Source: a bacterium (GTDB lineage: Bacteria > Patescibacteriota > Minisyncoccia > Phycocordibacterales > UBA2100). From it: DNA of 64,000 nucleotides. Position numbers and translations under genes: made by a program. Positions 6,091 through 59,998 of the stretch are shown here, piece after piece. How positions within the stretch are numbered: position 1 is the first letter of the stretch; the number at the start of each line of letters is the position of its first letter. Under the pieces are notes generated by a model that was given only the letters and a program-made list of their open reading frames with translations, had not been told where the DNA came from and ran no database searches. Location of the stretch: contig JAYPJF010000002.1 of the NCBI GenBank assembly GCA_038128225.1, positions 258,785 through 322,784 on the forward strand, read 5' to 3'.

Positions 6091-8018
6091 ATTTCTTCCA
6101 AACATTCAGGAGTAAGCACGCGCAACAGCCTCGATAACGAAAGCGTTGCGACGCACACCACCTTGTCGGCTCCTCCGTAATACACGTACATCACATCTCC
6201 GCGCACCGCCTGACCACACGAAAACACTACATTTGGTATCTCTCCTTCCTTTTCAAAATGGTGTTGCGGCGACAAGAATGGTTCGCTGAGACGCCCAAGC
6301 ACATGCGTAGGGTCTTTTGAATCCAAAAGCGCAGCACCAAGTTGGTACACACCATGTTTCGATACCGCATGATAGATCATGAGTAGCCCTTTCTCCGTTT
6401 TTATGATTGGCCCGGCAATCCCGACTTTCTTTTGCTCCCACGTTCCTTCGCGCGGCATGAGGATTTCAAAACACCGATTAATTTCACTATCACTAAAATT
6501 AAGGTCGTCAAACATATCTTGGCAAATATTGGGATCGATGCGATGAACAACTACATATTTTCCATCAATTCTTTCCGGCAAAATACAGGCGTCCTTGTCA
6601 CTTACATGTGCGGGCGAGATCCGCACCGGCATTGTCCACTGATCCCACTTGTGCGCCAAAAAATCAGTCTCAGCAATTGATGTGATCGCAACCCGCGGAG
6701 CCTCGACACCATCATATGCGGTATAGAGCATGTAGAGACGCTCCTCGACTTTCATGATGCGCGGATCTTCGCACCCAGAGTTCCCTGTCGGCGAGCCTCG
6801 TTTTTTTTCAAAATCGGCTCGGGGCACATATATAGGCTCAGGATGGAGTGTGCTGATCGTAGTCCCGTCAATGCTTTCCGCAAGGCCTATCACTGACGTG
6901 TTATCCTGCGACATTGCACGATACAAAATGTAAATCGTTCCATTCAATTCTATCGCGCCCGGATTTAAAACGGCGCGCGCTTGCCAGGCACTGTTGGGAT
7001 TCGGTTGTAGTATGGGGTTATGCGGGGATTTTTGTGCGAATCGAGCACGACGATCGGGTACAAGTGCGTCGAGTAAATCAGGTAGATAGACTGACGCTTT
7101 TGCGCAAAACGTGTCTGCAGCACCATAGTAAATATCGAGCCGCTCACCCACCACAAGCGCACCTGATGGAAACGTGACACGCCCAACAAGTCCATACACT
7201 TCGTACGGTGTCTCTGGTACAAGAAGCGGGCTGTGCGTGCGCCCGATAAACACCCGTGGGTCATTATGTGCCACGAGTGCCGCTTCGATTCCAAACACGC
7301 GCTGCGCGCCGGCAAAGTAGTCTTGAATGTACGAATAAATAAGTAGCCATCCGTCATCTGTTTTTATGGGCACTGCGCCCACTTCGACAAAATCGTTGCT
7401 CGTCCGTTGAAACTGCACGGTGTTACTCTCGATGTTTTCGTGCCACGCTTTCCAGTATTCCTCGCTCCAAAACTCTTCCATACGATCGGCCTGGGCAATG
7501 GCAAGTTTCTGCGGCGGTTCGTCGGAATGCGCAGTCAGTATTGCAGTAATTTTTCCGTTAATTCGCTCAGGAAAAAGCGCGAATGCTTTTGCATTAAACC
7601 GAGTCACGAGCTTCTTCTCTGCGATCGTTTCTAGGTCATCAGAAATCGCGCACCCGATGCGGATGCCTGAGGGGCCAAAAGGCACTTCTGCAAGTGCCGT
7701 GTAAAACGTATAGTAGCGCCCTTCGAAAAACGTAGTGCGCGGATCTTCACATCCGTATTTGTCCCATGCTTCACTTGGCGCAATAAACTGTGTGCGCTCC
7801 TTGAACACATTCCCGTCATCAGACACTGCATGTCCGATGGAAGAAAGATATACTCCGGGCGCTAACAATGGATCAGGTTTGCCTAGCGCCCGATACAGCA
7901 AGTGCGTTTTGCCATCTTTTTTTACTGGGCACCCATTAAAAGTCCCCGCTCCCTCCCATGGGCGATCAGATGATGGTTCAAGTATCGGATTATGCTGCGA
8001 CCGCTTGACGATATACAT
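6087..8018 (-). CDS. Tandem-domain GH130-family glycoside phosphorylase/hydrolase (two beta-propeller DUF377-like domains)
   Basis: Two copies of the pattern NPIL.P...W...FNPGA...G..YLLYRA...GCEDPR (residues about 10-320 and about 330-640). Confidence 0.75.
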   Translation of the reverse strand: MYIVKRSQHNPILEPSSDRPWEGAGTFNGCPVKKDGKTHLLYRALGKPDPLLAPGVYLSSIGHAVSDDGNVFKERTQFIAPSEAWDKYGCEDPRTTFFEGRYYTFYTALAEVPFGPSGIRIGCAISDDLETIAEKKLVTRFNAKAFALFPERINGKITAILTAHSDEPPQKLAIAQADRMEEFWSEEYWKAWHENIESNTVQFQRTSNDFVEVGAVPIKTDDGWLLIYSYIQDYFAGAQRVFGIEAALVAHNDPRVFIGRTHSPLLVPETPYEVYGLVGRVTFPSGALVVGERLDIYYGAADTFCAKASVYLPDLLDALVPDRRARFAQKSPHNPILQPNPNSAWQARAVLNPGAIELNGTIYILYRAMSQDNTSVIGLAESIDGTTISTLHPEPIYVPRADFEKKRGSPTGNSGCEDPRIMKVEERLYMLYTAYDGVEAPRVAITSIAETDFLAHKWDQWTMPVRISPAHVSDKDACILPERIDGKYVVVHRIDPNICQDMFDDLNFSDSEINRCFEILMPREGTWEQKKVGIAGPIIKTEKGLLMIYHAVSKHGVYQLGAALLDSKDPTHVLGRLSEPFLSPQHHFEKEGEIPNVVFSCGQAVRGDVMYVYYGGADKVVCVATLSLSRLLRVLTPECLEEI

Positions 8019-8060
8019 ACCCTGTATGGTATCAGAGTTTTCGCCTTCTCAGCATGCACA

Positions 8061-9206
8061 TCAAACAGGCGAAGAGGCGTGCGCGAGTGTGGGAGTGTGA
8101 TTACTCAGAATACTTTTTAAGATCTCCGCAATCGGTGCGTGCGCGACGTTTACCGTATGATCGCCACCGCCATAGTACACAAGAAGCTCGTCGTCTTTGA
8201 TAACGGCACCACAGGTATATACAACACCTTGTTTCCAATAATTTTCATACGGAGTTTCGGGAGAGAGAATAGGCCCTGGTGAACGCGCGAGCACATGCCT
8301 CGGATCGCCTACATCTAAAAGCAACGCTCCGATTTTGTATTTACCCGGATCTCGCGCTTCAGTCGCATGGTACAAGACCAACCATCCTGCCTCCGTTTTT
8401 ATTGGCGGTGGCCCCACGCCACGCACCCATGTATCCCACGTGGCACGGGGAGTCTTTGATCCAAACGTGCTGCGAATGCGCACTTTACCGCGTGCGAGAT
8501 CCTCAAGGTGATCAACATAATCAATTTGTACTTCAGGATTGATGCTATGCAACAGCGCGTATTTACCTTTAATTTTCTCAGGAAACAGCACCCAGTTTTT
8601 GTGTATCTCTTTTTCTGGTGAAAGTAATATTGGTTGTGTCCAGGCCCACCACTTGCGTATAAAATCCTGAACACCCACGCGAACCTCACCAATACGCACA
8701 AAATCCCACCCATCAAATGCGTTGAAAGTAAGATGCACTGTTTCTCCGATAACGACCATACGCGGATCCTCGCATCCTCCCCAACTACCACCGGAAGGAT
8801 ACAGGACCGGATCGAATCGCTTCACACACGGATAACACTGTCGAGGGTTACGCAATTCGAATACCGGATACAATAGACGTTCATCAAAATTAAATCCATC
8901 AGCACTCGACGCGTACCCAATCCGCGAGACTCCATCAGCACCGATCGCACGATAGAGGAGATGCACGCGCCCGTTGATATATGCGGCCGCAGGGTTAAAC
9001 ACGGAATGAGCTTCCCACCCATTCTGTGCCGTTGGTTTTAAAAGCGGATTATGTGCATACCGATTAACGGTAAACCATGACTGAACGGCGGTTATCGCTC
9101 GCTGTACCCATGCAGCAAACACCGCATTGAACCACCAGAGTCCCAGTAATGCTGCGAGAAGCAAGAACACCACCGCGATGTTACTAAACGATGCTGTTTC
9201 AAACAT
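8061..9206 (-). CDS. Membrane-anchored GH130-family glycosidase/mannoside phosphorylase
   Basis: N-terminal TM, then HNPLLKP...VFNPAAAYINGRVHLLYRA...GGCEDPRMV. Confidence 0.75.
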   Translation of the reverse strand: MFETASFSNIAVVFLLLAALLGLWWFNAVFAAWVQRAITAVQSWFTVNRYAHNPLLKPTAQNGWEAHSVFNPAAAYINGRVHLLYRAIGADGVSRIGYASSADGFNFDERLLYPVFELRNPRQCYPCVKRFDPVLYPSGGSWGGCEDPRMVVIGETVHLTFNAFDGWDFVRIGEVRVGVQDFIRKWWAWTQPILLSPEKEIHKNWVLFPEKIKGKYALLHSINPEVQIDYVDHLEDLARGKVRIRSTFGSKTPRATWDTWVRGVGPPPIKTEAGWLVLYHATEARDPGKYKIGALLLDVGDPRHVLARSPGPILSPETPYENYWKQGVVYTCGAVIKDDELLVYYGGGDHTVNVAHAPIAEILKSILSNHTPTLAHASSPV

Positions 9207-9210
9207 ACAT

Positions 9211-9561
9211 TTATACTCGACCGTATTTGTCGTTTATGCGGTCGATATCATTTTCATCAAACGTCCCAAATGCGATCTCTAAAACACGATTGTCGTCACC
9301 CACGCCACGGAGTCGGTGTGGCGTGCCTGCCGAAACCCAAAATTCATCTCCAGGATGAGCGCGATGCGTCTCTTCTCCGATCACTATTTCAAGATCTCCT
9401 GTTAATACACGCCAAAATTCATCACGATTTTTGTGAGACTGAAGACTATTCTCTTCGTCGCGCGTCACCGAAAGAATTTTAACCGTTGTCGGCTCATTCA
9501 ATGTAAAACGGCGAAAACTCCCCCACGGCCGAGATTCTTCATATGGGCGAAGCGCTTCCAT
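9211..9561 (-). CDS. Cupin-domain protein (mannose-6-phosphate isomerase type II C-terminal-like)
   Basis: 116-aa cupin fold (GEETHRAHPGDEFWVSAGTPHRL); located between the GH130 genes and the phosphomannomutase. Confidence 0.55.
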   Translation of the reverse strand: MEALRPYEESRPWGSFRRFTLNEPTTVKILSVTRDEENSLQSHKNRDEFWRVLTGDLEIVIGEETHRAHPGDEFWVSAGTPHRLRGVGDDNRVLEIAFGTFDENDIDRINDKYGRV

Positions 9562-9596
9562 ATAGTTAGTGTATCAGCAGCACACTGATGCGAGCC

Positions 9597-11012
9597 TCAG
9601 CCCTGTGGAATAATATGCGCCTCCCACGGCTCATGCACCCCTTCGTGTCTAAGTTTGCCTCGAAACTCTTCTACGATACGCTGCAGCGCGTCTTCGGTGT
9701 GCGCCTCAAAACGAAGTACAAGCGTAGGCGTGTTTGATGATGCGCGAATCAACCCCCACCCATCTTCGAAATACACTCGCGCGCCACTGATTGAGACAAT
9801 ACGCCGCCCTTCTTGAGCAAATGCCTTTCCCACACGTTCAACAATCGTGTACTTATCCATATCAGTTGTCTCCACTTGGATAGTTGGTGTTGCAACGTAG
9901 TACGGAGTCTTTGCGACCAACGCCGAAACAGATCCTTGGTGTTCAGAAACATATTCAAGGAGCTTTAGCGTGGCAAACAACGCATCGTCAACTCCGTTAA
10001 AATCGCGATAAAAGACGTGACCGCTCATTTCCCCGGCAAGCGCAGCTTTTTCCTCGGCAAGTTTCGCCTTTATATATGAATGCCCCGTCTTCCACATTAT
10101 AGGCACTCCACCGTGTGCCTTAATGTCCTCAGGAAGTGCCTCTGACACTTTTACATCGAAGACAATTTTTTCACCCGGCCCCTCTTGCAGGATTGCCCGT
10201 GCCAAAAGCATCAAATAGCGATCAGCCCATATAGTTACGCCCCGCTCATCGACTACTCCCAGCCGGTCGCCATCACCATCAAACGCTACCCCGATATCTG
10301 CGCGGTGTGCGACCGTTTGTGCTCCAGTGTCGCGCATCATGTCCTCGCTCTCGGGATTCGGTGTGTAGTTCGGATACGCAGCATCGAGTGTCGTGAGATG
10401 TTCGATGACCGTACACCCAAGCGCGCGAAGCACATCCGGTACAATGACGCCCGCAGTTCCATTTCCTGTATTGACGAGTACTGAAAGTGGCCGCGCAAGC
10501 CTTACGCGTGAGACTAAATCTTGTGTGTATGCTGCGGCAACCGACTCAGTACGCTCGCTTCCAACTCCATCGATCGCTGTGTCGCGCTCTACACGCGCGT
10601 ACAATTCTTGTATTTCATCAGGCAAGAGCGTTTGCGCCTTACTACACCCAAGTTTCAATCCATTCCATTCAGCGGGGTTGTGACTTGCGGTAACCATTAC
10701 CAATCCTGGCGCATCAAAGTGAAATTGTGCCCAATAACTCATGGGCGTAGTTACACGCCCAATATCGATTACATGAAACCCGGAGGCAACGAGGGCACGT
10801 CGAGCCTCCTGTGCAAATAGGTGTGATGTGGCACGGCCATCGTACCCAACAATAACGTCGCGCACTCCGCGCTCATGTGCCATGGTAGCGAACGCGCGAA
10901 CGATCACAAAAATACCCTCAGCGTTCAGCTCGTGCGCTACGCGTCCGCGGATGTCGTATTCACGAAACATAGTCGGTTCAAGATGCATAGCGGAAGTATA
11001 CTGCGACCGCAA
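9597..11012 (-). CDS. manB: Phosphomannomutase / phosphoglucomutase (alpha-D-phosphohexomutase)
   Basis: Active-site TASHNPAEWNG, metal loop DGDGDR, sugar-binding GEMSGH. Confidence 0.85.
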   Translation of the reverse strand: MRSQYTSAMHLEPTMFREYDIRGRVAHELNAEGIFVIVRAFATMAHERGVRDVIVGYDGRATSHLFAQEARRALVASGFHVIDIGRVTTPMSYWAQFHFDAPGLVMVTASHNPAEWNGLKLGCSKAQTLLPDEIQELYARVERDTAIDGVGSERTESVAAAYTQDLVSRVRLARPLSVLVNTGNGTAGVIVPDVLRALGCTVIEHLTTLDAAYPNYTPNPESEDMMRDTGAQTVAHRADIGVAFDGDGDRLGVVDERGVTIWADRYLMLLARAILQEGPGEKIVFDVKVSEALPEDIKAHGGVPIMWKTGHSYIKAKLAEEKAALAGEMSGHVFYRDFNGVDDALFATLKLLEYVSEHQGSVSALVAKTPYYVATPTIQVETTDMDKYTIVERVGKAFAQEGRRIVSISGARVYFEDGWGLIRASSNTPTLVLRFEAHTEDALQRIVEEFRGKLRHEGVHEPWEAHIIPQG

Positions 11013-12347: not shown

Positions 12348-12503
12348 AAAACATTTAAGGGGCGCAACGTGCCCCACTTGAAAAAAAGGTGGAACCACTT
12401 TACACAGAAGAGCGAGCCCAGCAGCGGGAACACCCCCATCGTAGATGCGGGGTGTTTCCTGTTATCTTTTTTGATAGACTCCACAAAGCACGACGCACAG
12501 GAG

Positions 12504-13049
12504 ATGCTCATGGTTACAAAGCAAAAAGAAGTGTCGTTTGGTACCGAGCGGGAAGCAAGTGGCGCACAACGGCAGCTTGCGCGAACACTACGAGAAATAG
12601 AGAAGACGCGAACGCGCGCGGCAGAACGCATTGACGCAATCAATGCTGCAGCGGACAATCAAGTTGCAATCCTCACTAATCACGCGATCGCGCTTGCAAA
12701 CGCGCTGGAAGCGTATGCGACCAGAGAACGCGAGTTCGCGAAAGGCAAGACGGTCACGATTGCCAGTGCGGGAGTCGTGCGTTGGCTCGATTCCCCGCCC
12801 GCTCTCGAAATTGATGACGTATCTGTGCTTCTGGCACAACTTAGGAAGCGCAAGCGACACCAGTACATTCGCGTGCGAGAGGAGATCGATAAGAGTGCGC
12901 TTTTGCGTGCGCTCCTGAGACGGCCACATATCGCCGCACAGCTTCCGGGTGTACGCGTTGCACGTTCAAGCAGAATTTTGATTCAACCCTCCGGTTCGGT
13001 GCTCGGTATTGAGCGACCCGAATCAAGAAGGCGTTGGCGTGTGAGATAA
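12504..13049 (+). CDS. gam: Bacteriophage Mu Gam-like protein (host-nuclease inhibitor / Ku-like DNA end-binding, PF07352-like)
   Basis: Aligns by eye with Mu Gam: GKTVTIASAGVVRWLDSPPALEI versus GKVKTANLVTGDVSWRVRPPSVSI, and DDVSVLLAQL..YIRVREEIDKSALL versus MDAVMETLERLGLQRFIRTKQEINKEAILL. RBS GGAG before ATG 12504/12510. Confidence 0.6.
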   Translation: MLMVTKQKEVSFGTEREASGAQRQLARTLREIEKTRTRAAERIDAINAAADNQVAILTNHAIALANALEAYATREREFAKGKTVTIASAGVVRWLDSPPALEIDDVSVLLAQLRKRKRHQYIRVREEIDKSALLRALLRRPHIAAQLPGVRVARSSRILIQPSGSVLGIERPESRRRWRVR

Positions 13050-22239: not shown

Positions 22240-22342
22240 TTTTAGTTGAGATGGTATATTTACAGAGTTGGATTTAATGGTATAGTCTTTTCGGCCAGCA
22301 ATTGCTGGATCTATATAGGTTAAACACACAGAGGAGGTGTGG

Positions 22343-23278
22343 ATGTTCGTCACATTCACAAAAGGATTCGTGCTGCACGCATTGTGGCAGCATATGAAGA
22401 GTCTTTTCTACTTCCTGTGCATCATGGGGGTGGCGATCCTGCCACCCTTCGCAGTCACGTGGACGTATGATCGAACGCATACCGGTGCTGCTGATTTCGT
22501 CGCGCAAGCGCTTGCCTGGTGGCCACTCGCCTACGTCGCCGCGTTTTTTCTTACAGTAGCGGCGCACGAGGCGGCTGGTTACTACTTCTACCAGCGTCGC
22601 GTGCGAAACCTCGATGGAACCACGGTGGACGACATCGTGGTACCGCTCGCTGAGCGTGCCGGAATACCGATGCCAACCATCGTGGTAATGGAGAGAGAGC
22701 ACTTCTTCAACGCGGGCGCCATGCACAGCTTCTTTTTTGGAGGCAAGATCATCGTCATGGGAAAAATACAGGAGTTGTTTCGCGAAAACCCCGGCAGGTT
22801 TGCTGCCGTGCTCGCGCACGAAGTAGCGCACCTGAAACATCGGGACATGATCCCGATGTGGGCCATTGCAATCGTGCAGCAGGTGCTCACCTTCCATCGC
22901 CTCGCACTTCTCGGGGTTGCGGCGGTCGGATCCGCGTGGTCGCCAGAGCATCTCGTGTTCCTCTGGGCACTCTTCGGAGTGTTCTGGGTGCTCGAGATCG
23001 TGGTGAGGCTTCTCACTGCGGCCGTGAGCCGGGCGCGTGAATACGTTGCGGACGTCGGCGCACATGCGCTCACGAAGGACTACGAGCTGCGCGACGATCT
23101 CATCGCCGCCATGCTCACCTTGGAGAATATCAGTTCGGGGCTGCATCCGATGCGGATTCTCGAACAGACAGGGTGGGCCGTCTTCCGCTCGCACCCCACC
23201 ACCGCCGACCGCGCCCGTGCATTGAAAGTCACAGGGCGACTGGCCGGAAATGGCGACTTTGTCGTTTCCGCGGCGTGA
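22343..23278 (+). CDS. htpX: M48-family zinc metalloprotease (HtpX-like)
   Basis: HEVAHLKHRD (HExxH) with flanking TM helices; RBS GGAGG 7 nt upstream of ATG 22343. Confidence 0.8.
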   Translation: MFVTFTKGFVLHALWQHMKSLFYFLCIMGVAILPPFAVTWTYDRTHTGAADFVAQALAWWPLAYVAAFFLTVAAHEAAGYYFYQRRVRNLDGTTVDDIVVPLAERAGIPMPTIVVMEREHFFNAGAMHSFFFGGKIIVMGKIQELFRENPGRFAAVLAHEVAHLKHRDMIPMWAIAIVQQVLTFHRLALLGVAAVGSAWSPEHLVFLWALFGVFWVLEIVVRLLTAAVSRAREYVADVGAHALTKDYELRDDLIAAMLTLENISSGLHPMRILEQTGWAVFRSHPTTADRARALKVTGRLAGNGDFVVSAA

Positions 23279-23290
23279 CACGTAAGAATC

Positions 23291-40020: not shown

Positions 40021-40701
40021 ATGGCAAACGGACATGTTCTTTCGTTGGCTATTTCAGGGCTTCGGTTCTCAGGGAGAACCGAACTCTACCAACAGCTTGA
40101 ACTCGTGTTGCCGAAGGACGAAAGCCTTCGGGAATGTGAATTCGCATTCTTGGGAAATCCGTTCGGTCACTTGCGACACCCGCTTCAATGGGTACGCGAG
40201 GGACACAAAAAGCATGGCCTTTCCCGGCTATTCGAATGCTGGGGCATGCTGAACGAATTCACCGAGGAGCTGTGGATGCCGGCACTCAAGACGGGAAAGA
40301 TTCCCGTTATGGACGGATGCGGGCTCGATGCCGTCCTCTACGCGACGGCGTGCATCGAATGCCCGATGGACCATGCAAAGGTTATGGACTGGCATCATGA
40401 GCTCGTCCATGATCGCATCGTGAAGCAGGGCGTCTCTCCTCCGAGATACCTGATCACGCGAGCGGATCCGCAGCGACTGCTGCGTGGTCTTCGTGAAAAG
40501 GAGATTGTCGACGCCGGAGTGAATGATCACACGATACTCGGCTTTATCGACAAGGAACGTACAACGATCGTCGACTACTTCAGGCCGGGCTCAGGACAGC
40601 AGACTCCCTACTATCTGCCCGCTCTCATGAGCACGGAGACGATGGTGACGGAGGCGGTGATGCACATTCGCCGCGCAGTGCGAACACGAGTGGCTGCCTG
40701 A
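40021..40701 (+). CDS. Hypothetical protein with a degenerate Tmk/dNK-like P-loop
   Basis: LSLAISGLRFSGRTELYQQL versus the Tmk consensus IEGLEGAGKST (Lys replaced by Arg, extra residue). Confidence 0.4.
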   Translation: MANGHVLSLAISGLRFSGRTELYQQLELVLPKDESLRECEFAFLGNPFGHLRHPLQWVREGHKKHGLSRLFECWGMLNEFTEELWMPALKTGKIPVMDGCGLDAVLYATACIECPMDHAKVMDWHHELVHDRIVKQGVSPPRYLITRADPQRLLRGLREKEIVDAGVNDHTILGFIDKERTTIVDYFRPGSGQQTPYYLPALMSTETMVTEAVMHIRRAVRTRVAA

Positions 40702-40723: not shown

Positions 40724-40753
40724 GGGGGGCCCGGCCATGCCGGGCCCTTTTCT
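40724..40753 (+). terminator. Rho-independent terminator
   Basis: GGGCCCGGcatgCCGGGCCCttttct. Confidence 0.55.
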
Positions 40754-41046
40754 ATACGGACACACCCGGGAGAAGAACTTTCACCTCGAGCTCTGTCCCA
40801 AAATATCTACTTGATAGCAACAAAAACAAGAGTAGAATGACCTCGTTCTGAAGCATTTGCATTGCTTGCCTCCAGGGCTTGCAACGCGAGTTCTGCAGGG
40901 CTCCCTATGGACGTGTCTTTCATGGCTGCTGTATTTTTGTTGACCACACTCTGCATTGTGGATCTTTGTGCCGCATACAGCTTTTCAGCCCATCCTTTTG
41001 TGCTGGCCCTAACAATGCACAATAGAGGCGCTTTACAGATCTTTAC

Positions 41047-43605
41047 ATGACACCCCCAATACGTCATCCGGGCACGACCTTCGATGAGGCACACGTGCTG
41101 CACTCGCTCAAACATTACCTCCCTTCGCAAGGCCCTTTGAAGGATTTCGTACATCACAATACGCTCCATGCCTTCCAGGATATGCTGTTTTATGACGCGA
41201 TCTTCAAAGCATCGGAGATTTTCGGTTACAAAGTGACATTCTCACTTGCTGAGTATCGCAACCTCTATCGGACCGGACGTATTCATACAACTATCCTTGA
41301 GAGGACCGTCCGTGAACACAAGGGTGATGAACATTTTGATGAGTGGTATCGCAAGGTACTGCATGAGACGTTCGGTGGCCAGCTCGAAGCGCGCATACAC
41401 GCGCTGCGAAAGGGGTGGCGAGAACACTACCCGATCGATCTCAACAATGCGGTACATCCCTTATTGTTCCGTATCTTATGCAGTTACCTCGACCAAGGCA
41501 TAGCCATCGTCCCGTTTCCGTATGAAAACGCGGGACTATTAGACGCGATACGAGCCTTAGAGAAAAACAGTGCGGCGCATTTCTTGAATACCGACCGAGC
41601 GCGAACACTCTTGCACGACCCTGACCTCACCCTCGAGGTATTGCTCACGATCCTGGTCGGTAAGCAAGAGTATTTTGAAGAGTACATCTACGGACAGCAG
41701 TTTGCGCACCGAGGATGGTCGGGCATGGTCTCGACTCTGGAGAATCGCCCCGAAACACTCCTGTACCCAAAAAAGATCGCCCTCAAGGACCTTATACTTC
41801 TGGAGTGTCTCATGGAAATCGATGCGTTGGATTCGGCATTCGGGCTGAATTGGAAACCGTTGGGTGAACTTACCAACCGCCCGCCTATGGACATCTTTGC
41901 AGATATCGATGCGAAAGAGATCTACGATGTCATCAAGATATGGCATGATGCGTTCGAGTGGAGTTACTACGACGAAGCACTGATGGCGATCAAGAAAAGC
42001 GCATCACATAATCCGAATACAAAGGAAGGAGCGAAGAGGTTCCAAGCAATATTCTGCATCGACGAACGCGAGGACTCGATCCGTCGCCACATCGAAAGCA
42101 CTGGCGCGTGCGAGACACTCGGCGCCCCCGGATTCTTCGGCGTCGAATTCTATTTTCACCCTGCGCACGCGAAGTTCTATGACAAATTGTGTCCCGCACC
42201 AGTGACGCCCGCATTCTTAATCGAGGAGATCCCGTCTGCCGAAAAACACACACCGGCTCGAGAAATCGTATACACGAAGGAATCCCACACGCTCATACGC
42301 GGAACGGTAGCCTCATACATCTTAGGAATACCTTCCCTCGTAAAACTCATTTTTAATCTCTTGTCTCCCACCATGAGCCCGGCCATCGCCGATGCGTTTG
42401 CGCACATGCACGATGAAAACGAACTAACCGTCGTACATGAGGGGAAACGGGACGAAGCGCGCAACCTCCAGATCGGCTTCACCGTGGCCCAGATGGCGGA
42501 CCGCGTGGAGAAACTCCTTCGCGGCATCGGATTGGTCCGGAATTTTACCCGCCTAGTGTACTTCATCGGCCATGGCTCTTCGAGCGCCAACAACCCTCAC
42601 CATGGCGCTCACGACTGCGGCGCCTGCAGCGGACGCCCTGGTTCTGTGAACGCCCGTGTCGCTGCGACTATGGCCAATCATCCAGATGTGCGCGAGGAAC
42701 TGCGAAAGCGCGGACTCGACATTCCGGCATCGACGCATTTCGTAGGCGGTCTCCACGATACCGCGAGCGATGAGATCGAATTCTACGACGAACGGAAGAT
42801 GTCTGCCGAGCACCAGGAACTCCACACACAAAACAAACAGGACTTCGAGCGCGCACTGGATCTCAATGCGAAGGAGCGTTCGCGACGGTTTATGTCGATC
42901 GACACGAAGCAATCGCTAGAACGAATTAGGAAGGCGATCAAACAACGATCCGTGTCTTACTTCGAACCGCGCCCCGAACTCGGTCATGGAACGAACGCAC
43001 TCTGTATCGTGGGTAACCGTGCGCTCACTCGCAACCTTTTCCTCGACCGACGCGCCTTCATGAATTCCTATGACTACCGCACGGATCCCGACGGGACCTT
43101 CCTTACCAATGTCATAGCGCCACTTCCTCTGGTATGCGGAGGCATCAACCTCGAATACTATTTCTCGCGCATGGACAACTCGAAGCTGGGAGCGGGTACC
43201 AAACTACCGCACAACGTGATGGGACTCATCGGTGTCGCTAACAGCAGTGATGGTGACCTACGAGCAGGGTTGCCCTTGCAGATGATTGAGGTGCATGATC
43301 CTATCCGGCTCATGATGATCGTCGAACATGATCCTGCGGTGGTATCGCGAGTCATCTTAGCAACACCTGCGCTCTCAGAGTGGTTCACCAATGAATGGGT
43401 CCATCTGGCAGCCTTCCATCCGGAAGAGAATAGACTGTATATCTTCAAAGACCGTGAGTTCGTCCCCTATGAGCCATGTACCGATGAGACAAGCGTCCTC
43501 GAGGAGGATTTCCTTGCGGTGATCGAATCTGCCGAAAAGATGAAGACCAACAACATCGTCGACGCGACCAAAGAGAATCTTCGCATCCGGCTCATGCCCC
43601 GCTAA
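41047..43605 (+). CDS. dabA: DabA (DUF2309/UPF0753) subunit of the DAB inorganic-carbon pump
   Basis: 852 aa; FCIDERED (Cys-x-Asp) and HGSSSANNPHHGAHDCGACSG (His/Cys) are placed like the Zn ligands of characterised DabA. Confidence 0.8.
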   Translation: MTPPIRHPGTTFDEAHVLHSLKHYLPSQGPLKDFVHHNTLHAFQDMLFYDAIFKASEIFGYKVTFSLAEYRNLYRTGRIHTTILERTVREHKGDEHFDEWYRKVLHETFGGQLEARIHALRKGWREHYPIDLNNAVHPLLFRILCSYLDQGIAIVPFPYENAGLLDAIRALEKNSAAHFLNTDRARTLLHDPDLTLEVLLTILVGKQEYFEEYIYGQQFAHRGWSGMVSTLENRPETLLYPKKIALKDLILLECLMEIDALDSAFGLNWKPLGELTNRPPMDIFADIDAKEIYDVIKIWHDAFEWSYYDEALMAIKKSASHNPNTKEGAKRFQAIFCIDEREDSIRRHIESTGACETLGAPGFFGVEFYFHPAHAKFYDKLCPAPVTPAFLIEEIPSAEKHTPAREIVYTKESHTLIRGTVASYILGIPSLVKLIFNLLSPTMSPAIADAFAHMHDENELTVVHEGKRDEARNLQIGFTVAQMADRVEKLLRGIGLVRNFTRLVYFIGHGSSSANNPHHGAHDCGACSGRPGSVNARVAATMANHPDVREELRKRGLDIPASTHFVGGLHDTASDEIEFYDERKMSAEHQELHTQNKQDFERALDLNAKERSRRFMSIDTKQSLERIRKAIKQRSVSYFEPRPELGHGTNALCIVGNRALTRNLFLDRRAFMNSYDYRTDPDGTFLTNVIAPLPLVCGGINLEYYFSRMDNSKLGAGTKLPHNVMGLIGVANSSDGDLRAGLPLQMIEVHDPIRLMMIVEHDPAVVSRVILATPALSEWFTNEWVHLAAFHPEENRLYIFKDREFVPYEPCTDETSVLEEDFLAVIESAEKMKTNNIVDATKENLRIRLMPR

Positions 43606-43611
43606 TCGCCT

Positions 43612-45453
43612 ATGTATCTGCCCTTCCTCGTCCTCCTGCCGCTGTTCGCCGCTCTATTCTGCAGTCTTTTCCCAAGTCGCTCAGAGAGAGTCATTTCGCG
43701 CATAGCGATCATATCCACGCTCGCGGCCATGTTCATGTTTGCGTGGACATTTGCCCTCTGGGTACGCGGTGGAGTTGAACCGATTTTCGATGCCGGATTG
43801 ACTCTATTTTCCAGCGACGCGTATGTGTTCGCCTTTAATTTCTACATGGATGCCATCTCGGCGGTTTTCTTCGGGGTGACCTGTCTCATTACGATCCTGA
43901 TCTTGCTCTTTAGTAAGTACTACATGCATCGGGACCCAGGGTTCCGGCGCTTTCACGCGACAATCCTTCTCTTTGTGTTCGGCCTCTCGCTCGTCATATT
44001 TTCGGGAAATTTTGAGACGCTTTTCGTGGGGTGGGAGTTCATCGGTATCAGCTCGTTTCTCCTGATCTCCTTCTACCGTGACCGGTACCTACCCACAAAG
44101 AATAGCCTCAAAGTGTTCGCCCTGTACCGCATCGCCGACACTCTCTTCATCATCGCTTTATGGTACGCGCATCACCTGTTCGACAAGAATGTCCTGTTTT
44201 CCGAGTTCGCGTCACTCATCGGCGAACACGGCAACGACCTCTTGATCCTGGGCATACTCTTCGTGGCGGTCGCTATGATCAAGTCTGCACAGTTCCCTTT
44301 CTCATACTGGCTCCCGCGTGCCATGGAGGGACCGACGACGTCTAGCGCCATTTTCTATGGGGCCTTGTCGGTGCATATCGGGTTGTTTCTTTTGCTCCGT
44401 ACCTATCCGTTGTGGGAAGGTAATACCGGGCTTCGCATACTGGTAGCGCTCGTTGGGCTTCTCACTGCACTCATAGCGACTTCGATCACCCGTGTGCAGT
44501 CGTCCGCGAAGACGCAGATCGCATACGCGTCGGTTACGCAGATCGGGATCATGTTCGTCGAGGTTGCAGCAGGGCTTCACGCCCTCGCATTGTTCCACTT
44601 CGTCAGTAATGCCTGCCTCCGCACGTATCAGCTGCTCATTTCTCCTTCGATACTGAGCTACCTAATTCACTATCAGTTTTATACCTTCACGCCACCCACA
44701 CATAAGATGCAGCCTAATTTCGTCGGGAAAATCCGTTCGACGCTCTTCATACTGGGGCTCAAGGAGTGGAATATGGATAGCGTCATGACGCATCACATCT
44801 GGCAGCCGCTCAAGTCTATGGGCCAGCGGCTGCGCTTTCTGGACAAAAAGCCCGCGTTGATGTTCTGCGTAGCACTCTTATTCTTGGGCATGTACGTCGC
44901 GCATGACGAGCACGCCTCTCGCATGATAGTGAGCGGCATGACATGGGTCAGTGCGGTACTGAGCATACTCCTTTTCGTGCGCTCCTACGCGAATACGGGC
45001 ACAGCGCTCGCATGCTGGACACAGGTTTTCTTTGGCCAGGTCTTTGCGTTCGTATTCTTGATTACACTAACAGAGGTGACGTTCCAAACCGCCCTCATCT
45101 ATCTTACTGGCATCGTGCTTGCGTATGCCGCAGGACTACTGTGTCTCAGATTCCTTGATACTGGTAGCGTCCGACTCAGCGTGAGCGAGTATCATGGCTA
45201 CATGTATAAACACCCCGCGATAGGCAACATATTCTTCGTCGCTACTCTAGCGATGGTTATGTTTCCGATTACGCCGTCCTTTATCGGCGAGGAAGTACTC
45301 TTGAGCGGGATTCACACGGATCAAAGTGCGTTCGTAGCTGTCTTCATATTAGGGTATGTTCTTTCAGGAGTGAGCTCGATGCGGCTCTTTGCGAAAGTAT
45401 TCTTCGGTCCGCACGCAAAGACCTACCACGAGATGGCATATAGATCGTCCTAG
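43612..45453 (+). CDS. dabB: DabB, NuoL/MrpA-family proton-translocating membrane subunit
   Basis: About 15 TM; SAQFPFSYWLPRAMEGPTTSSAIFYGALSVHIGLFLL matches the PF00361 core ([22 protein letters not shown]); 6 nt after the dabA stop. Confidence 0.8.
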   Translation: MYLPFLVLLPLFAALFCSLFPSRSERVISRIAIISTLAAMFMFAWTFALWVRGGVEPIFDAGLTLFSSDAYVFAFNFYMDAISAVFFGVTCLITILILLFSKYYMHRDPGFRRFHATILLFVFGLSLVIFSGNFETLFVGWEFIGISSFLLISFYRDRYLPTKNSLKVFALYRIADTLFIIALWYAHHLFDKNVLFSEFASLIGEHGNDLLILGILFVAVAMIKSAQFPFSYWLPRAMEGPTTSSAIFYGALSVHIGLFLLLRTYPLWEGNTGLRILVALVGLLTALIATSITRVQSSAKTQIAYASVTQIGIMFVEVAAGLHALALFHFVSNACLRTYQLLISPSILSYLIHYQFYTFTPPTHKMQPNFVGKIRSTLFILGLKEWNMDSVMTHHIWQPLKSMGQRLRFLDKKPALMFCVALLFLGMYVAHDEHASRMIVSGMTWVSAVLSILLFVRSYANTGTALACWTQVFFGQVFAFVFLITLTEVTFQTALIYLTGIVLAYAAGLLCLRFLDTGSVRLSVSEYHGYMYKHPAIGNIFFVATLAMVMFPITPSFIGEEVLLSGIHTDQSAFVAVFILGYVLSGVSSMRLFAKVFFGPHAKTYHEMAYRSS

Positions 45454-45500: not shown

Positions 45501-46727
45501 TCAGTAGCTCCTCAGCTGCTTCGCCCGTTCGTGCAAACGGATTTTTTCAAGCGCCTTAGCCTCGATTTGGCGAATACGCTCGCGCGTCACACCAAATTCT
45601 CGCCCTACTTCTTCAAGCGTGTAGCACACGCCATCGTCGGTGAGCCCGTGTCGCAATTCCAAAATCTTTCGCTCTTTCGGAGATAATTCATCTAATACTG
45701 CTTGCATTTGATCCGAGAGGATACGGTGTGACGCGGCGCGATCAGGCGCTTCAATTGTTTCGTCCGCAATAAAACTCCCCAGAGTTGAACGATCTTCGTC
45801 ATCGCTCCCCACAGGACTTTCAAGCGAAACGGTGTCTTGGTTAATTTTTTGAATCGTGTAAATCTTATCGAGTTCGATGCCCATTTCTGCAGCAATTTCT
45901 TCTGGCACCGGCTCGCGGCCCAAATGTTGCGAAAGCTCGCGCACTTTTTGTTTATACTTTGCGATCGTCTCCACCATGTGCACCGGAATGCGGATGGTGC
46001 GTGATTGATCAGCGAGCGCGCGTGTAATCGCCTGTCGAATCCACCACGTTGCATACGTTGAAAATTTAAATCCTTTTGTCCAGTCGAACTTTTCTACCGC
46101 TTTATACAAACCCATATTTCCCTCTTGAATGAGGTCGAGAAGCGTAAGGTCCGGAGAACGATTAACGTACTTTTTTGCGATCGAAACTACCAAGCGCAAG
46201 TTTGATCGAGCAAGAATATGTTTTGCTTCTTCGTCTTCTTGCATAATGCGCTTTGCGAGATCTTTTTCCTGTTGCGCATTCAAAAGCGGGTATTGCCCGA
46301 TCTCGCGCAGATACATCTGCACCGGGTCATATGCGCTATCAGAGCGCCGGTGCTGTAGTTTCTTCTTTTCAAGAATTTCATACGCGGAAGCGTCTTCAAG
46401 CATGCCGCCGCCTTCAAGCACATCAACGCCTGCGGTACTAAACTTTTCGTACAATTCCTCAAGGGTAAACACGTCGTCCTCGATTGTCGGAAACTCGCGG
46501 AGAATTTCATCGTACGTTACATATCCGCGACCTCTCCCGAGCGAGAGAAGTGCCTCGATGCGTTGTTCGCGCGTTTTGCCTTTTTGCGGAACTTTCTTTG
46601 CGCCTTTTCTTACAGTGCCGTTACCTGCCTTTTTTGCCCCTCGTTTTTGGGTTTTTTGTTGAACACGAGAACCCCCTTTTTTCCGGGGCGCTTTCTGTGC
46701 AACGCGTTTAGATTTCTTTTTTGCCAT
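45501..46727 (-). CDS. rpoD: RNA polymerase sigma factor RpoD (sigma-70)
   Basis: Region 2 [18 protein letters not shown] and [13 protein letters not shown]; region 4 [25 protein letters not shown]; basic N-terminal extension. Confidence 0.9.
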
Positions 46728-46776
46728 GAGAAGATTGAGTACGAAAAAATCACACCGATGCGGTGTTTGCACTAAT

Positions 46777-58133: not shown

Positions 58134-58853
58134 TTAGTTGGAAGCGGTCTCCGCGTCCAAAGCACGAATCTCAGCGTGAACAAGTTCCTCGTCGAGATCG
58201 CTGAGACTCTCGACGATGACGACGACCGCTTCGTGCTTATACGGGACGAACACGTTCCTGAAGAGGAACTCAGCCCAGTCGGGGCGGACCCGGATGCACC
58301 CATGGCTTGCCCAGCCGTACTTCACATTCCCGGCGTGGAGGGCGTAGCCGTCATGGAGCCGATTTCCGTCGGCACCATGATCGATGAACGCCGAGAATGG
58401 CATCGAAGCATCGTACTTCCCCGATACATAATTCTCGTCGACCATCGCTATCTTGTACGACCCCGTTGGAGTCGCGAAGCCGCGGCGCCCAGAAGAAATG
58501 GGAGCCACCACCGACACCACTTCTCCAGTCGTACTCTGCGCCTTCATACGCTCGCCACTTGGATGGTATGCGGCAAGCGTCTGCTGCTCGAGGTCGACCA
58601 CGACCACCGGAACTCCGAGAGGAGGGAGTTCCTCGGGCATACCGAGTAGGGTCGGTCGCCGAGTACGCGGGTCAGGATCAGAGGCGGGTCGCCGAATGCG
58701 CTCAGCAGTCGGGGCACGCAAAGTAGTATGAGCCTTCTTCTTCGACTTCACCATCTCTTCGTATCGGCGTTCGCCGAAAGTCGACTCGGCTCGCGCCGAG
58801 TCATTCACGGTGAAGAATACCGCGAAACACGCCAGCATCATCAATATTCTCAT
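58134..58853 (-). CDS. L,D-transpeptidase (YkuD domain), secreted
   Basis: Signal peptide MRILMMLACFAVFFTVNDSARA; catalytic HDGYALHAG...ASHGCIRV. Confidence 0.8.
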   Translation of the reverse strand: MRILMMLACFAVFFTVNDSARAESTFGERRYEEMVKSKKKAHTTLRAPTAERIRRPASDPDPRTRRPTLLGMPEELPPLGVPVVVVDLEQQTLAAYHPSGERMKAQSTTGEVVSVVAPISSGRRGFATPTGSYKIAMVDENYVSGKYDASMPFSAFIDHGADGNRLHDGYALHAGNVKYGWASHGCIRVRPDWAEFLFRNVFVPYKHEAVVVIVESLSDLDEELVHAEIRALDAETASN

Positions 58854-58981
58854 GCTGATTCCTTTCGATTTTTTGCTGCCTGTCGTTTTATCCGTTAAAA
58901 TTATGACACGCCAGTATAAAAAAATCAAGCAACAAAAAGGGCCCAGGATGACCTGGGCCCGAAATTCGCCTAGCAAGGCGT

Positions 58982-59998
58982 TTACTTCTTCTTTTTCTGC
59001 CCACCCCCGCTGCTCATACCCTTGGCGGGCTGAGCAGCAAGACGATTGGCGCGATTCTCCTCCCTCCTCTTCTTGATTTTCGCGCGCTTGAGGGCAGCAT
59101 CATGCGACTGCACGCGCACCTGTTCGGCAGGAACTCCCACGTCACGAGTATGCGCGACATTGATGCGCATCGCGTGTTCCGAAGAAATTCTCCGCAGCAC
59201 AGAAACCGCATGCTCTTGCACTGCCTTGCGCAACCCAACATCCCACGCGAACTCCTCGAGGATTTCGAAAGCCTTCGCAAAGACGTACTTGTTCCGCCCG
59301 GCAACTGCGAGCATGCTGACAAGCTGGTGAAGTGCGAAGTCTTCACGCTTCACCCTCTGATCTCCGTCGCACTCTTTGGCTGCCGCTAGCATGGTGAGTA
59401 CTTCCGCGATGCGAACATCTGCCTGCTCTTCATGGGAGAGCGCATCAGTGACGAGCGTCCCTCCCTCCCGAGCAATGCGCACAACTCGCCCGTCGACATA
59501 CATGATGTCAGCGTACTGCCCATCTCTCTCAAACGAGAGGAGCCACTCACCCTGGCTCTCCATACGTACATCTGCATCACCCGCCACCACCGTCTGGAGG
59601 CGCTCTTTTGGAACATACCGCGCCGGTGCGTGGGTGATGACGTGCAAGAGAAGCGACGTCTCAGAAGATGGGTACACGAGCAGCAACATCCGGCCGCCGC
59701 TTTGCGTCATGCGCTCCTCAAGCGCGACTCGCTTGGCAATGCCGATAGTGCTGCCCTCTTTTACATACTCACACCCTCGTTCAACTCCGTGCTCGACGCG
59801 GCTATCCCGAAGGACGAACCGCTCGCCCACAAAGAGCGCCGGCCGATTCCGGGTGAGCGGATGCTCGAGCGTCAAAGCGACCCCTTCGAAGAGCTTGCTG
59901 TCCCACCCTATGCTGTACCCCAGTGCCCTTTTGCTGAGCGTACCAGCACTAAGAAGAGTCTGCCCCATTTTCAATACTCCATTTTTCAACCCGCCCAT
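58982..59998 (-). CDS. Hypothetical protein with a C-terminal Lys/Arg-rich tail
   Basis: No recognisable domain; ends ...KKRREENRANRLAAQPAKGMSSGGGQKKKK. Confidence 0.45.
   Translation of the reverse strand: MGGLKNGVLKMGQTLLSAGTLSKRALGYSIGWDSKLFEGVALTLEHPLTRNRPALFVGERFVLRDSRVEHGVERGCEYVKEGSTIGIAKRVALEERMTQSGGRMLLLVYPSSETSLLLHVITHAPARYVPKERLQTVVAGDADVRMESQGEWLLSFERDGQYADIMYVDGRVVRIAREGGTLVTDALSHEEQADVRIAEVLTMLAAAKECDGDQRVKREDFALHQLVSMLAVAGRNKYVFAKAFEILEEFAWDVGLRKAVQEHAVSVLRRISSEHAMRINVAHTRDVGVPAEQVRVQSHDAALKRAKIKKRREENRANRLAAQPAKGMSSGGGQKKKK

Follow-up and report, generated by a model that had tools for sequence, protein, structure and literature searches.

A two-gene module consisting of dabA and dabB lies at positions 41047-45453 of a 64,000-nucleotide stretch of contig JAYPJF010000002.1 (GenBank assembly GCA_038128225.1), hereafter called the window. 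Profile searches, multiple alignments and structure prediction, complemented with a comparison of 70 fetched loci, indicate that this pair is a genuine member of the DAB superfamily and that it belongs to a deep branch, "His-type DabA with long DabB", rather than to the canonical DAB systems. The two genes are as follows:

41047-43605, + strand: dabA, 852 residues, predicted cytoplasmic Zn subunit that resembles a beta-carbonic anhydrase, His-type branch (PF10070 at 714 bits; PDB 9rd0_A at E=1e-65; AlphaFold2 (AF2) model)
43612-45453, + strand: dabB, 613 residues, predicted membrane subunit for cation translocation, NuoL-like and of the "long DabB" type (PF00361 and PF00662; AF2 model)

The two open reading frames (ORFs) are separated by 6 nt, and both were found exactly where an earlier sequence-only reading of this DNA had placed them. 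In the public gene call (P0001), DabA has 836 residues, which is 16 residues shorter than the ORF (41047-41094); the longer start is favoured because homologues of 851-856 residues align from residue 1.

A DabB homologue stands beside dabA in 63 of the 70 loci, directly downstream and on the same strand in 62 of them; in one (L017) the two genes are about 2 kb apart and on different strands. The remaining seven loci are cut short. The adjacent DabB matches are full length in nearly all loci (~612-627 residues), and the identities of DabA and DabB to the window proteins are correlated (r=0.93, 60 loci). This adjacency, together with the correlated identities, excludes a stray NuoL and agrees with the earlier description of the locus as a complete DabA-DabB pair, the two genes being co-inherited. 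Throughout the window branch dabA precedes dabB, whereas dabB precedes dabA in all canonical loci examined (Halothiobacillus neapolitanus, Nitrobacter, Pantoea, Salinivibrio, Halobaculum, Phaeobacter, Mycolicibacterium and Staphylococcus). No ORF for the third small membrane subunit, DabC, was found between or after dabA and dabB. The product of orf226, the gene upstream of the pair, is no candidate for this subunit either, as it has no long hydrophobic stretch by eye and its gene is set apart from the pair by a terminator-like hairpin.

The predicted active site of DabA

DabA matches PF10070 (DabA/DUF2309) over profile positions 2-747 of 747, with its 714 bits standing against a cut-off of 25 (E=2.7e-214), and residues 319-794 match chain A of PDB 9rd0, with ~35% identity across the catalytic half. 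The latter entry is the 2026 cryo-electron microscopy structure of the DabB2-DabA2 fusion of H. neapolitanus, in which the DabA2 chain keeps its native numbering. This DAB2 system (Lo et al., bioRxiv 10.64898/2026.03.13.711513; Desmarais et al. 2019) likewise consists of two genes, PF10070 plus PF00361, without DabC. The two profile matches that the sequence-only reading had proposed as a check were thus both obtained, for PF10070 over the full length. NCBIfam holds no model for DabA, and the subfamily was therefore assigned by alignment. The relevant segments of dabA are:

42055-42069, + strand: codons of C337-I-D339-E-R341, first Zn ligand and Asp-Arg dyad, aligned to C351, D353 and R355 of DabA2
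42121-42141, + strand: lid motif G359-A-P-G-F-F-G365, found by regular expression and matching the DAB motif GI(A/G)GFFG
42292-42363, + strand: finger/elbow segment, residues 416-439, LIRGTVASYILGIPSLVKLIFNLL, hydrophobic, without an acidic residue at the tip
42571-42633, + strand: H509 through the loop NNPHHGAHDCGACSG that contains C524, Zn ligands; respective DabA2 counterparts H524 and C539
42970-42987, + strand: R642-P-E-L645-G-H647, variant of RPEWGL in which Leu658 is replaced by His647 and the gate Trp656 by Leu645

In a MAFFT alignment of 261 relatives (120 of them close, the other 141 being representatives at 50% identity), the Zn ligands C337, H509 and C524 as well as D339 are invariant, and R341 is present in 259 sequences (120/120 close relatives, 139/141 representatives). 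The lid residues G359, G362, F363, F364 and G365 are invariant too, the lid Cys-Pro (C382-P383) is kept, and the loop motif NNPxxxxxDCGACxG is found at residues 515-529 with invariant core residues. The lid motif GI(A/G)GFFG itself was defined in the paper on DAB1 (Phillips et al., bioRxiv 10.64898/2026.05.01.722082). The Cys2His Zn site, the Asp-Arg dyad, the GxxGFFG lid, the NNPH..DCGAC loop and the R-P-E core are all shared with DAB2. All strings quoted in the sequence-only reading are present, namely FCIDERED (containing C337, D339 and R341), the loop at 515-529 and, in DabB, WLPRAMEGPT, and the alignment to H. neapolitanus DabA that it had called for places C337, D339, R341, H509 and C524 opposite C351, D353, R355, H524 and C539 of DabA2. 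Its assignment of the Zn-site residues needs one correction: the Cys and Asp residues are indeed conserved, but the ligand His is not located within HGAHDCGACSG; it is H509 in "IGHGSS", 15 residues before C524.

The AF2 model of DabA (predicted local distance difference test score (pLDDT) 80.6; predicted template modelling score (pTM) 0.83) gave a single and weak match in a Foldseek search of a PDB copy ending April 2026, the carboxysomal beta-carbonic anhydrase (beta-CA) CsoSCA (8thm), and 9rd0 was not returned by this search. A likeness of DabA to CsoSCA is also reported in the DAB1 paper (Phillips et al.). DabA is best described as a predicted cytoplasmic enzyme with a complete and conserved Zn-hydratase site of the beta-CA-like Cys2His type.

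Around this conserved core, DabA departs from canonical proteins. The canonical DW(xxx)RPEWGL motif is absent and reads SYFEPRPELGH in the window, in an alignment that is anchored by the near-invariant R-P-E. Position 658 (DabA2 numbering) is His in 261/261 window-type DabAs, as opposed to Leu in 109/109 relatives of H. neapolitanus DabA2 and in seven named canonical DabAs (from Nitrobacter, Pantoea, Salinivibrio, the haloarchaeon Halobaculum, Phaeobacter, Mycolicibacterium and Staphylococcus pettenkoferi); the Nitrobacter example is a DAB1 with DabC, beside RuBisCO and carboxysome genes. The full arrangement of Trp656 and Leu658 occurs in 109/109 DabA2 relatives and likewise in the named canonical examples. 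Position 356 is Glu in the window type but Ser in canonical DabAs, except for two named ones with Ala or Cys, and at position 376 the canonical Ala is replaced by Pro in that part of the window type that comes from Bacteroidota and the Candidate Phyla Radiation (CPR). Leu658 of DabA2 takes the place of the beta-CA Gln or His that stabilises the transition state or bicarbonate, and 150 DabA2 homologues have it without exception (Lo et al.); the equivalent Leu825 is broadly conserved within DW(xxx)RPEWGL (Phillips et al.). Both structure papers propose that this Leu disfavours bicarbonate binding or blocks dehydration (Lo et al.; Phillips et al.). Nevertheless, the DabA2 variants L658Q, L658N, L658A and L658G kept their in-vivo function and gave no free CA activity (Lo et al.), so that His647 alone is no proof of reversibility.

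The membrane finger is the other point of departure. Glu444 at the finger tip of DabA2 was found to be essential (Lo et al.) and is present in all 109 DabA2 relatives and in the seven named canonical DabAs, although the two structure papers disagree on the role of this residue (Lo et al.; Phillips et al.). Opposite Glu444 the window DabA has Tyr or a gap, and the window type as a whole has Tyr, Leu, Phe or a gap with no conserved acid, in a region where the alignment is weaker than elsewhere. AF2 predicts a helix at the finger with low confidence, and the lack of a Glu444 equivalent is therefore read from the sequence alignment only.

The membrane subunit DabB

DabB matches PF00361 and PF00662 and carries WLPRAMEGPT at residues 233-242, in line with the NuoL/MrpA-type subunit described earlier. 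Against the NCBIfam NuoL equivalog it reaches 212 bits for a cut-off of 556 bits (<40% of the cut-off), and against MrpA and MrpD at most 128 bits for cut-offs of at least 542. By Pfam there are no other nuo or mrp genes in the window. We therefore rejected both an identity as complex-I NuoL, given its score, its place beside dabA in 63/70 loci and the lack of a nuo operon, and an identity as MrpA or MrpD, given its scores and the lack of mrp genes in the window; the sequence-only reading had itself named a bona fide NuoL from a nuo operon as the outcome that would overturn its proposal, and this is not the case. The best sequence matches in the PDB are nevertheless ND5/NuoL, at 137 bits versus 97 bits for DabB2, and the AF2 model (pLDDT 82.1; pTM 0.84) finds its best structural matches in E. 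coli NuoL chains, with a TM-score of ~0.54. Three segments of dabB are of particular relevance:

44035-44037, + strand: E142, Glu in transmembrane helix 5 (TM5), equivalent to NuoL E144 (Ile151 in DabB2)
44281-44376, + strand: K224, Y249 and H255; K224 is equivalent to NuoL K229 and DabB2 K235, Y249 stands at the position of DabB2 H260 and NuoL H254, and H255 is invariant
45265-45303, + strand: TM12b-like motif P552-ITPSFIGE560-E561-VLL, a broken helix (local alignments, phmmer, AF2)

These equivalences come from a MAFFT alignment of the window protein and 28 partner DabBs (CPR and Bacteroidota) with NuoL, NuoM and NuoN of E. coli MG1655 and DabB2 of H. neapolitanus, which is validated by its reproducing the published mapping of I151, D185 and K235 onto E144, D178 and K229 (Lo et al.). 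The charged residues E142, R173, D176, K224, K300 and H329 are kept across the 29 DabBs, and E142 is invariant in 71/71 CPR sequences and 29/29 family members. Equivalents of K235/D185, K310 and H339 of DabB2, and of E144, R175, D178, K229, K305 and H334 of NuoL, are therefore present in the window protein. In contrast, the canonical proton-path signature H260-K310-H339-H343-K347, seen as H-K-H-H-K in 7/7 canonical DabB/MpsA proteins (H. neapolitanus DabB2 and six of the named examples), is replaced by Y249-K300-H329-N333-R337, which is invariant in the branch and accompanied by an invariant His six residues further on (H255). The three substitutions are thus His260 to Tyr, His343 to Asn and Lys347 to Arg with respect to DabB2, and H254 to Tyr, H338 to Asn and K342 to Arg with respect to NuoL. 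His260 of DabB2 has been described as an essential proton-path residue (Phillips et al.).

The C-terminal part of DabB is likewise closer to the complex-I subunits than to DabB2, which is also shorter (551 versus 613 residues). In local alignments to TM12-13, the last 100 residues score 60 with NuoL, 82 with NuoM and 62 with NuoN, but 29 with DabB2, and a phmmer search of the PDB with this region matches only TM12-14 of Nad4/NuoM. E560 stands opposite NuoL K399, NuoM E407 and NuoN K395, and E561 opposite NuoL D400; position 561 is Asp or Glu in 71/71 CPR sequences and 29/29 family members. The AF2 model has a helix at 535-548, a break and a second helix at 555-565. DabB keeps the two broken helices along with the NuoL-type path of charged residues. 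No motif of the PITPSFIGEE type occurs in the seven canonical DabB/MpsA proteins, and DabB2 has been reported to lack the TM12b element, with Glu444 of DabA2 standing in for K399/D400 (Lo et al.). Canonical systems thus combine a DabB without TM12b acid with a DabA finger Glu and the window type shows the reverse, so that the two differences are complementary. Other parts of the C-terminus set DabB apart from NuoL: residues ~345-510 (nt ~44645-45141) form a ~165-residue segment with three to four predicted helices between TM11 and the TM12-like helix, which has no NuoL counterpart and in which E385 and K401 are invariant, and in the AF2 secondary structure the protein ends in short helices, with no long lateral helix and no TM16.

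The equation of the window pair with characterised DabA made in the sequence-only reading therefore holds only in part. It is a DabA/DabB-type pair, but one from a deep sister branch that differs at residues taken as mechanistic hallmarks, with His647, no Glu444, DabB Tyr249, a TM5 Glu, a TM12b acid and a reversed gene order.

Phylogeny and probable transfer

A neighbour-joining tree of DabA (131 sequences, 807 columns, Kimura distances, 100 bootstraps) separates the window type from the canonical proteins, including DAB1, DAB2 and proxies for the MpsAB and Vibrionaceae types, with 100% bootstrap support. Within the window type, the CPR clade is monophyletic (100%), is joined by two Saprospiraceae sequences (96%) and then by a Chitinophaga-type group (100%), and nests inside a broad Bacteroidota radiation. 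The simplest reading of this topology is that dabAB moved by horizontal transfer from Bacteroidota into a CPR lineage. At least 120 distinct clusters (at 90% identity) share at least 63% DabA identity with the window. Relatives at 64-81% identity come from metagenome-assembled genomes (MAGs) labelled Candidatus Saccharibacteria/Saccharimonadales, Chromulinivoraceae, Patescibacteria, Kaiserbacteria and Lloydbacteria, and the assignment of the clade to the CPR is based on these labels, which disagree at class level (Saccharibacteria, Kaiserbacteria, Lloydbacteria), and on shared synteny. Some relatives carry dabAB on contigs of 1.0-1.3 Mb. With CPR/Saccharimonadales MAGs as nearest relatives and contigs of about 1 Mb, the reduced, heterotroph-like host genome suspected earlier is supported. 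The window itself is part of a 345-kb contig. Loci labelled Bdellovibrionales, Gammaproteobacteria and Bacillota (L006, L055, P0055/P0558) carry dabAB at the same 64-81% identity; L006 and P0055 fall within the 100%-supported CPR clade, and these contigs are probably mis-binned or mislabelled.

When did the module arrive at its present site? The upstream gene order, histidyl-tRNA synthetase, RNaseH-like, DsbA and PD-(D/E)XK genes followed by dabAB, is found in whole or in part in four relatives with a DabA identity of 74-81%, so that the module must have occupied this site before these genomes diverged. A recent insertion at the site was rejected for the same reason. The "self-contained insertion" proposed in the sequence-only reading is thus supported as far as a foreign, Bacteroidota origin is concerned, and by a GC content at third codon positions (GC3) that lies 2-3 standard deviations (sd) above that of the rest of the window, but not as a recent event. 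GC3 amounts to 0.643 in orf226 (+2.4 sd), 0.63 in dabA and 0.68 in dabB, compared with 0.513 ± 0.055 in 42 other window ORFs. In relatives the GC3 of dabAB equals that of the neighbouring genes, and the anomaly is confined to the window genome; though genuine, it is of modest size (+2 to +3 sd), and the inference of transfer is not based on it. Allelic replacement is one possibility for its origin.

One CPR locus offers an additional observation. On a 1.07-Mb Saccharimonadales-like contig (JGI 3300044745, L001:1-4190), the genes of an F-type ATP synthase form a complete operon whose end lies ~6 kb upstream of dabA, and this enzyme is likely a source or consumer of the ion gradient for DabB.

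Inorganic-carbon genes beside dabAB in Bacteroidota

A gene for an anion transporter (bicarbonate-type) of the SulP family adjoins dabAB in 44 of the 60 non-CPR loci of the branch, nearly all of them labelled Bacteroidota, and a beta-CA gene does so in ~14 of the 60, with the order SulP-beta-CA-DabA-DabB in Chitinophaga-type loci. Within loci L010-L070 the SulP genes are located at ~3.6-5.2 kb or 10.4-12 kb (locus coordinates). In the Saprospiraceae sister lineage, a protein of 1390 residues (P0122) consists of a SulP domain (PF00916) fused to a His-type DabA, and its gene is followed by one for a 622-residue long DabB and then by a small gene with a weak PF00484 beta-CA match; this fusion locus was found at L079:6001-12602 (and in L080) in Saprospiraceae MAG GCA_030729925.1. 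The SulP family includes the cyanobacterial bicarbonate transporter BicA (Phillips et al.). Neighbours of this kind link the branch, which is typical of Bacteroidota, with inorganic carbon. The CPR loci represent a minimal two-gene version of dabAB, in some cases with orf226.

The upstream region and other features of the window

Three features lie upstream of dabA:

40021-40701, + strand: orf226, conserved hypothetical protein of 226 residues with a degenerate Walker-A-like "GLRFSGRT"
40727-40753 including the tail, + strand: hairpin, GGGCCCGGC-cat-GCCGGGCCC at 40727-40747 followed by TTTTCT
40811-40838, + strand: promoter-like site, sigma-70-like TTGATA-16-TAGAAT with 10/12 consensus matches, ~210 nt before the dabA start

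The orf226 product has no match in Pfam or the PDB even at E<=10. Its gene adjoins dabAB in three CPR genomes, upstream in two, the window and L002 (991-1671, 61% identity, directly upstream of dabA), and downstream in one, L007 (10803-11471, 60% identity, directly downstream of dabB), and orf226 may belong to the CPR dabAB module as an accessory gene. The hairpin starts 26 nt past the orf226 stop codon and has a GC-rich 9-bp stem with fully complementary arms (40727-40735 and 40739-40747; 100%), a 3-nt loop and a T-rich tail. It is likely the intrinsic terminator of orf226, parting this gene from dabAB. A consensus terminator scan did not include it among its sites, though an inverted-repeat search and direct reading show it, and the upstream terminator previously noted at 40724-40753 is thus real, with the stem-loop at 40727-40747 plus the tail. 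The promoter-like site is only suggestive, as the regional total of such sites is no higher than in shuffled sequence. An Rfam search of the dabA leader matched no family.

Downstream, rpoD (45501-46772, - strand) is convergent with dabB at a distance of 47 bp, as the sequence-only reading had also noted, and is followed by dnaG, rpoC and rpoB. The ~45 window ORFs of at least 150 residues encode envelope, glycan, two-component, tRNA-synthetase and RNA-polymerase functions. Pfam domains for RuBisCO, carboxysome components, carboxylases or carbonic anhydrases occur in none of them, which for RuBisCO and the carboxysome is what had been reported earlier. Some further features of the window are of separate interest. 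At 6087-11012 (- strand) two GH130 genes (beta-1,4-mannooligosaccharide phosphorylase family) lie beside a phosphoglucomutase/phosphomannomutase gene, which suggests mannoside scavenging. A bacteriophage Mu Gam-like gene (PF07352) is found at 12369-13049 (+ strand), with adjoining ORFs that have no Pfam match. Two other regions exceed the window mean in GC3 by 2 sd or more: a 335-residue ORF at 22274-23281 (- strand), and a YkuD L,D-transpeptidase gene followed by a 338-residue ORF at 58134-59998 (- strand).

Comparison with known systems

DAB1 (DabA1-DabB1-DabC), described from Thermocrinis albus and H. neapolitanus (Phillips et al.), shares with the window pair its superfamily, the Zn site, the lid with Cys-Pro and a NuoL-like DabB. 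Its motif NNPYESALDCGACGG corresponds to the window loop at 515-529, and its DW(xxx)RPEWGL to the variant described above. DAB1 has a DabC gene, whereas the window has none, and the essential DabB His of T. albus (H229) is Tyr in the window; moreover, the DAB1 locus of Nitrobacter lies beside carboxysome and RuBisCO genes, and the window lacks such neighbours. Among the DABs of heterotrophs are MpsAB in Staphylococcus aureus and NdhF-YbcC(MpsB) in Bacillus subtilis, which like the window pair occur in organisms without autotrophy genes, and a general bicarbonate-supply role is therefore plausible. Databases label close relatives of the window DabA "MpsB" or "YbcC family". We represented S. aureus MpsAB by a plasmid-borne S. 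pettenkoferi pair as a proxy, and this MpsAB-type pair is canonical: it has RPEWGL, the finger Glu, the order mpsA before mpsB, a 492-residue MpsA, H-K-H-H-K and no TM12b motif. On the mobilisable plasmid concerned (NZ_CP066063.1; L081, 868-7480), the mpsA-mpsB-type pair and two small genes lie between two IS6 transposase genes, which looks like a mobile DAB cassette in staphylococci.

NuoL/ND5 is the best match of the window DabB in both sequence and fold, and shares with it the charged residues listed above and a motif resembling K399/D400 of TM12b; it differs in the three substituted proton-path residues, the ~165-residue insert, the lateral helix and TM16, and its nuo operon context. On the side of DabA, CsoSCA is the sole structural neighbour of the model, and the window DabA has a His at the bicarbonate hydrogen-bonding position as do some beta-CA active sites (Phillips et al., apparently citing the CsoSCA structure paper). 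Fusions of SulP with a CA are another point of comparison, since SulP is joined to a CA-like domain once more in the Saprospiraceae sister lineage; the window region has no SulP. Unlike CsoSCA and the SulP-CA fusions, DabA has a large N-terminal helical domain, a membrane finger and a dependence on a membrane partner.

Discussion

What might such a pair do in a CPR cell? We regard energy-coupled CO2 hydration, supplying bicarbonate with an altered coupling, as a fairly probable function. DabA would dock on DabB, a NuoL-like ion-translocating membrane protein, and ion flow through DabB would gate the hydration of CO2 by DabA, in the manner of DAB1 and DAB2. Intracellular CO2 would be converted to bicarbonate at the expense of an ion gradient, and inorganic carbon may in this way be supplied to, or trapped in, a cell that apparently encodes no further carbonic anhydrase near the locus. 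In contrast to the canonical systems, the periplasmic half-channel would be provided by DabB, through the Glu of TM5, the ion-pair residues (Lys/Asp and Arg) and the broken TM12 with its invariant acid, and not by the DabA finger, and the active site could hydrogen-bond bicarbonate by means of the canonical beta-CA His that takes the place of the Leu thought to block the back reaction. A CPR (Saccharimonadia-like) lineage would have taken up dabAB alone by horizontal transfer and kept it at a fixed chromosomal position. A pump function is suggested here by family membership rather than by orthology to an experimentally tested system, and which way the reaction runs, which ion couples it and what the cell uses it for are points that we infer. 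As possible uses, the sequence-only reading had suggested anaplerotic bicarbonate supply or pH homeostasis rather than autotrophy.

Several observations weigh against a bicarbonate-supplying pump. As judged by alignment, Leu658 and Glu444 of DabA and His260 of DabB, which have been called essential or strictly conserved in DAB1 and DAB2, are all missing here, and the published coupling model is therefore not transferable as it stands. In addition, a His where bicarbonate binds could let the reaction run backwards. The inorganic-carbon genes of the Bacteroidota relatives are not retained, as neither SulP nor beta-CA genes are found in the flanks of the CPR loci or in the window, and by Pfam there is no carboxylase, and no bicarbonate sink was seen, in the 64-kb window. 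In general, CPR bacteria are not known to carry out bicarbonate-consuming biosyntheses. Finally, our literature search found no tested member of this branch.

Alternatively, the pair may be mainly a Na+- or H+-translocating system that acts on membrane potential, as first proposed for S. aureus Mps, with the CA-like subunit serving as regulator or proton source; the purpose of the pair would then not be to accumulate bicarbonate but, in CPR cells that have no respiratory chain, to keep ions or pH in balance. The window DabB keeps the full NuoL-like charged set, including the TM5 Glu and the TM12b acid, and would therefore be a more complete antiporter-like module than DabB2. MpsAB rescues Na+-sensitive E. 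coli and DAB2 does not (Lo et al.), the NCBI name of a close relative is "Na-translocating system protein MpsB", and the absence of any bicarbonate-consuming enzyme from the window fits here as well. We nevertheless consider such a role rather unlikely, as the conserved Zn site, dyad, lid and NNP..DCGAC loop argue for real CO2/HCO3- chemistry, the SulP and beta-CA genes beside the Bacteroidota relatives, in one case fused, point to inorganic carbon rather than sodium, and the staphylococcal MpsAB-type pair lies on the canonical side of the tree. Real CO2/HCO3- chemistry might also run the other way, in a reversible or dehydrating complex that couples HCO3- + H+ -> CO2 + H2O to outward ion movement and acts as a proton sink, or as an ion pump powered by a disequilibrium between CO2 and bicarbonate. 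His647 replaces the very Leu that is proposed to disfavour bicarbonate binding and dehydration, DabB shows the signatures of two half-channels, as a pumping antiporter-like subunit does, and the adjacent or fused SulP (BicA family) of Bacteroidota could import bicarbonate. This direction seems unlikely to us: the effects of L658Q/N/A/G in DabA2 mean that a single residue does not set the direction, the CPR loci have no SulP and thus no evident route for bicarbonate import, and the proposal is purely a structural inference.

It is very improbable that the module is a decaying relic of horizontal transfer without present function. The foreign origin, the atypical GC3 and the lack of an obvious bicarbonate sink in a minimal genome would fit a relic, but both ORFs are intact and full length, the catalytic and channel residues are invariant over at least 120 CPR clusters at 63-81% identity, and the locus is syntenic, which together imply strong purifying selection in genomes under reductive pressure. 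There is next to no chance that DabB is simply the NuoL of a complex I, or an Mrp subunit, whose gene lies beside a DUF2309 gene by coincidence. Its closest PDB matches are indeed ND5/NuoL rather than DabB2 (137 versus 97 bits; TM-score 0.54), yet it stays far below the NuoL cut-off (212 versus 556 bits) and every Mrp cut-off, has no nuo or mrp genes around it in the window, accompanies dabA in 63/70 loci across CPR and Bacteroidota with correlated divergence, and has a C-terminal architecture unlike that of NuoL, with the ~165-residue insert and without lateral helix or TM16.

A bicarbonate-supplying, energy-coupled complex thus remains the reading that we favour, and a bolder view can be put beside it. 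The branch could be a mechanistically distinct vectorial or reversible carbonic anhydrase, with a self-sufficient NuoL-like proton path in DabB and an ancestral bicarbonate-binding His in DabA; in CPR/Saccharibacteria it would tie ion translocation to the CO2/bicarbonate couple so as to conserve energy or to control pH or membrane potential, instead of feeding carboxylases, and would be a stripped-down descendant of a Bacteroidota SulP/beta-CA/DAB cluster. We hold this view to be doubtful as a whole.

The family assignment as such is not new. DABs are already known in heterotrophs, in Bacteroidetes and in more than 14 phyla, and databases already use the names DabA, MpsB and YbcC. Both structure papers, however, limited their conservation analyses to DabA1 or DabA2 relatives (10.64898/2026.03.13.711513; 10.64898/2026.05.01.722082), and in the searchable literature we found neither a recognition that this branch diverges at mechanism-defining residues nor its association with SulP and beta-CA; searches there for DAB, MpsAB or DUF2309 in CPR or Saccharibacteria, and for carbonic anhydrase in Saccharibacteria, returned nothing relevant. 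Automated names such as "DabA", "MpsB" and "NuoL" mask this functional subdivision.

In conclusion, the His-type branch bears on the question of how DAB complexes make CA chemistry one-directional, for which the 2026 structures point to the active-site Leu, the finger Glu and the DabB His. A branch represented by many Bacteroidota and at least 120 CPR clusters replaces all three residues, and its DabB regains NuoL elements that canonical DabB has lost, making it a ready-made natural comparison for the features that confer vectoriality and coupling. That a reduced, host-dependent CPR lineage keeps an apparently energy-consuming inorganic-carbon device raises the question of what use bicarbonate, or CO2-linked ion movement, has in these cells.

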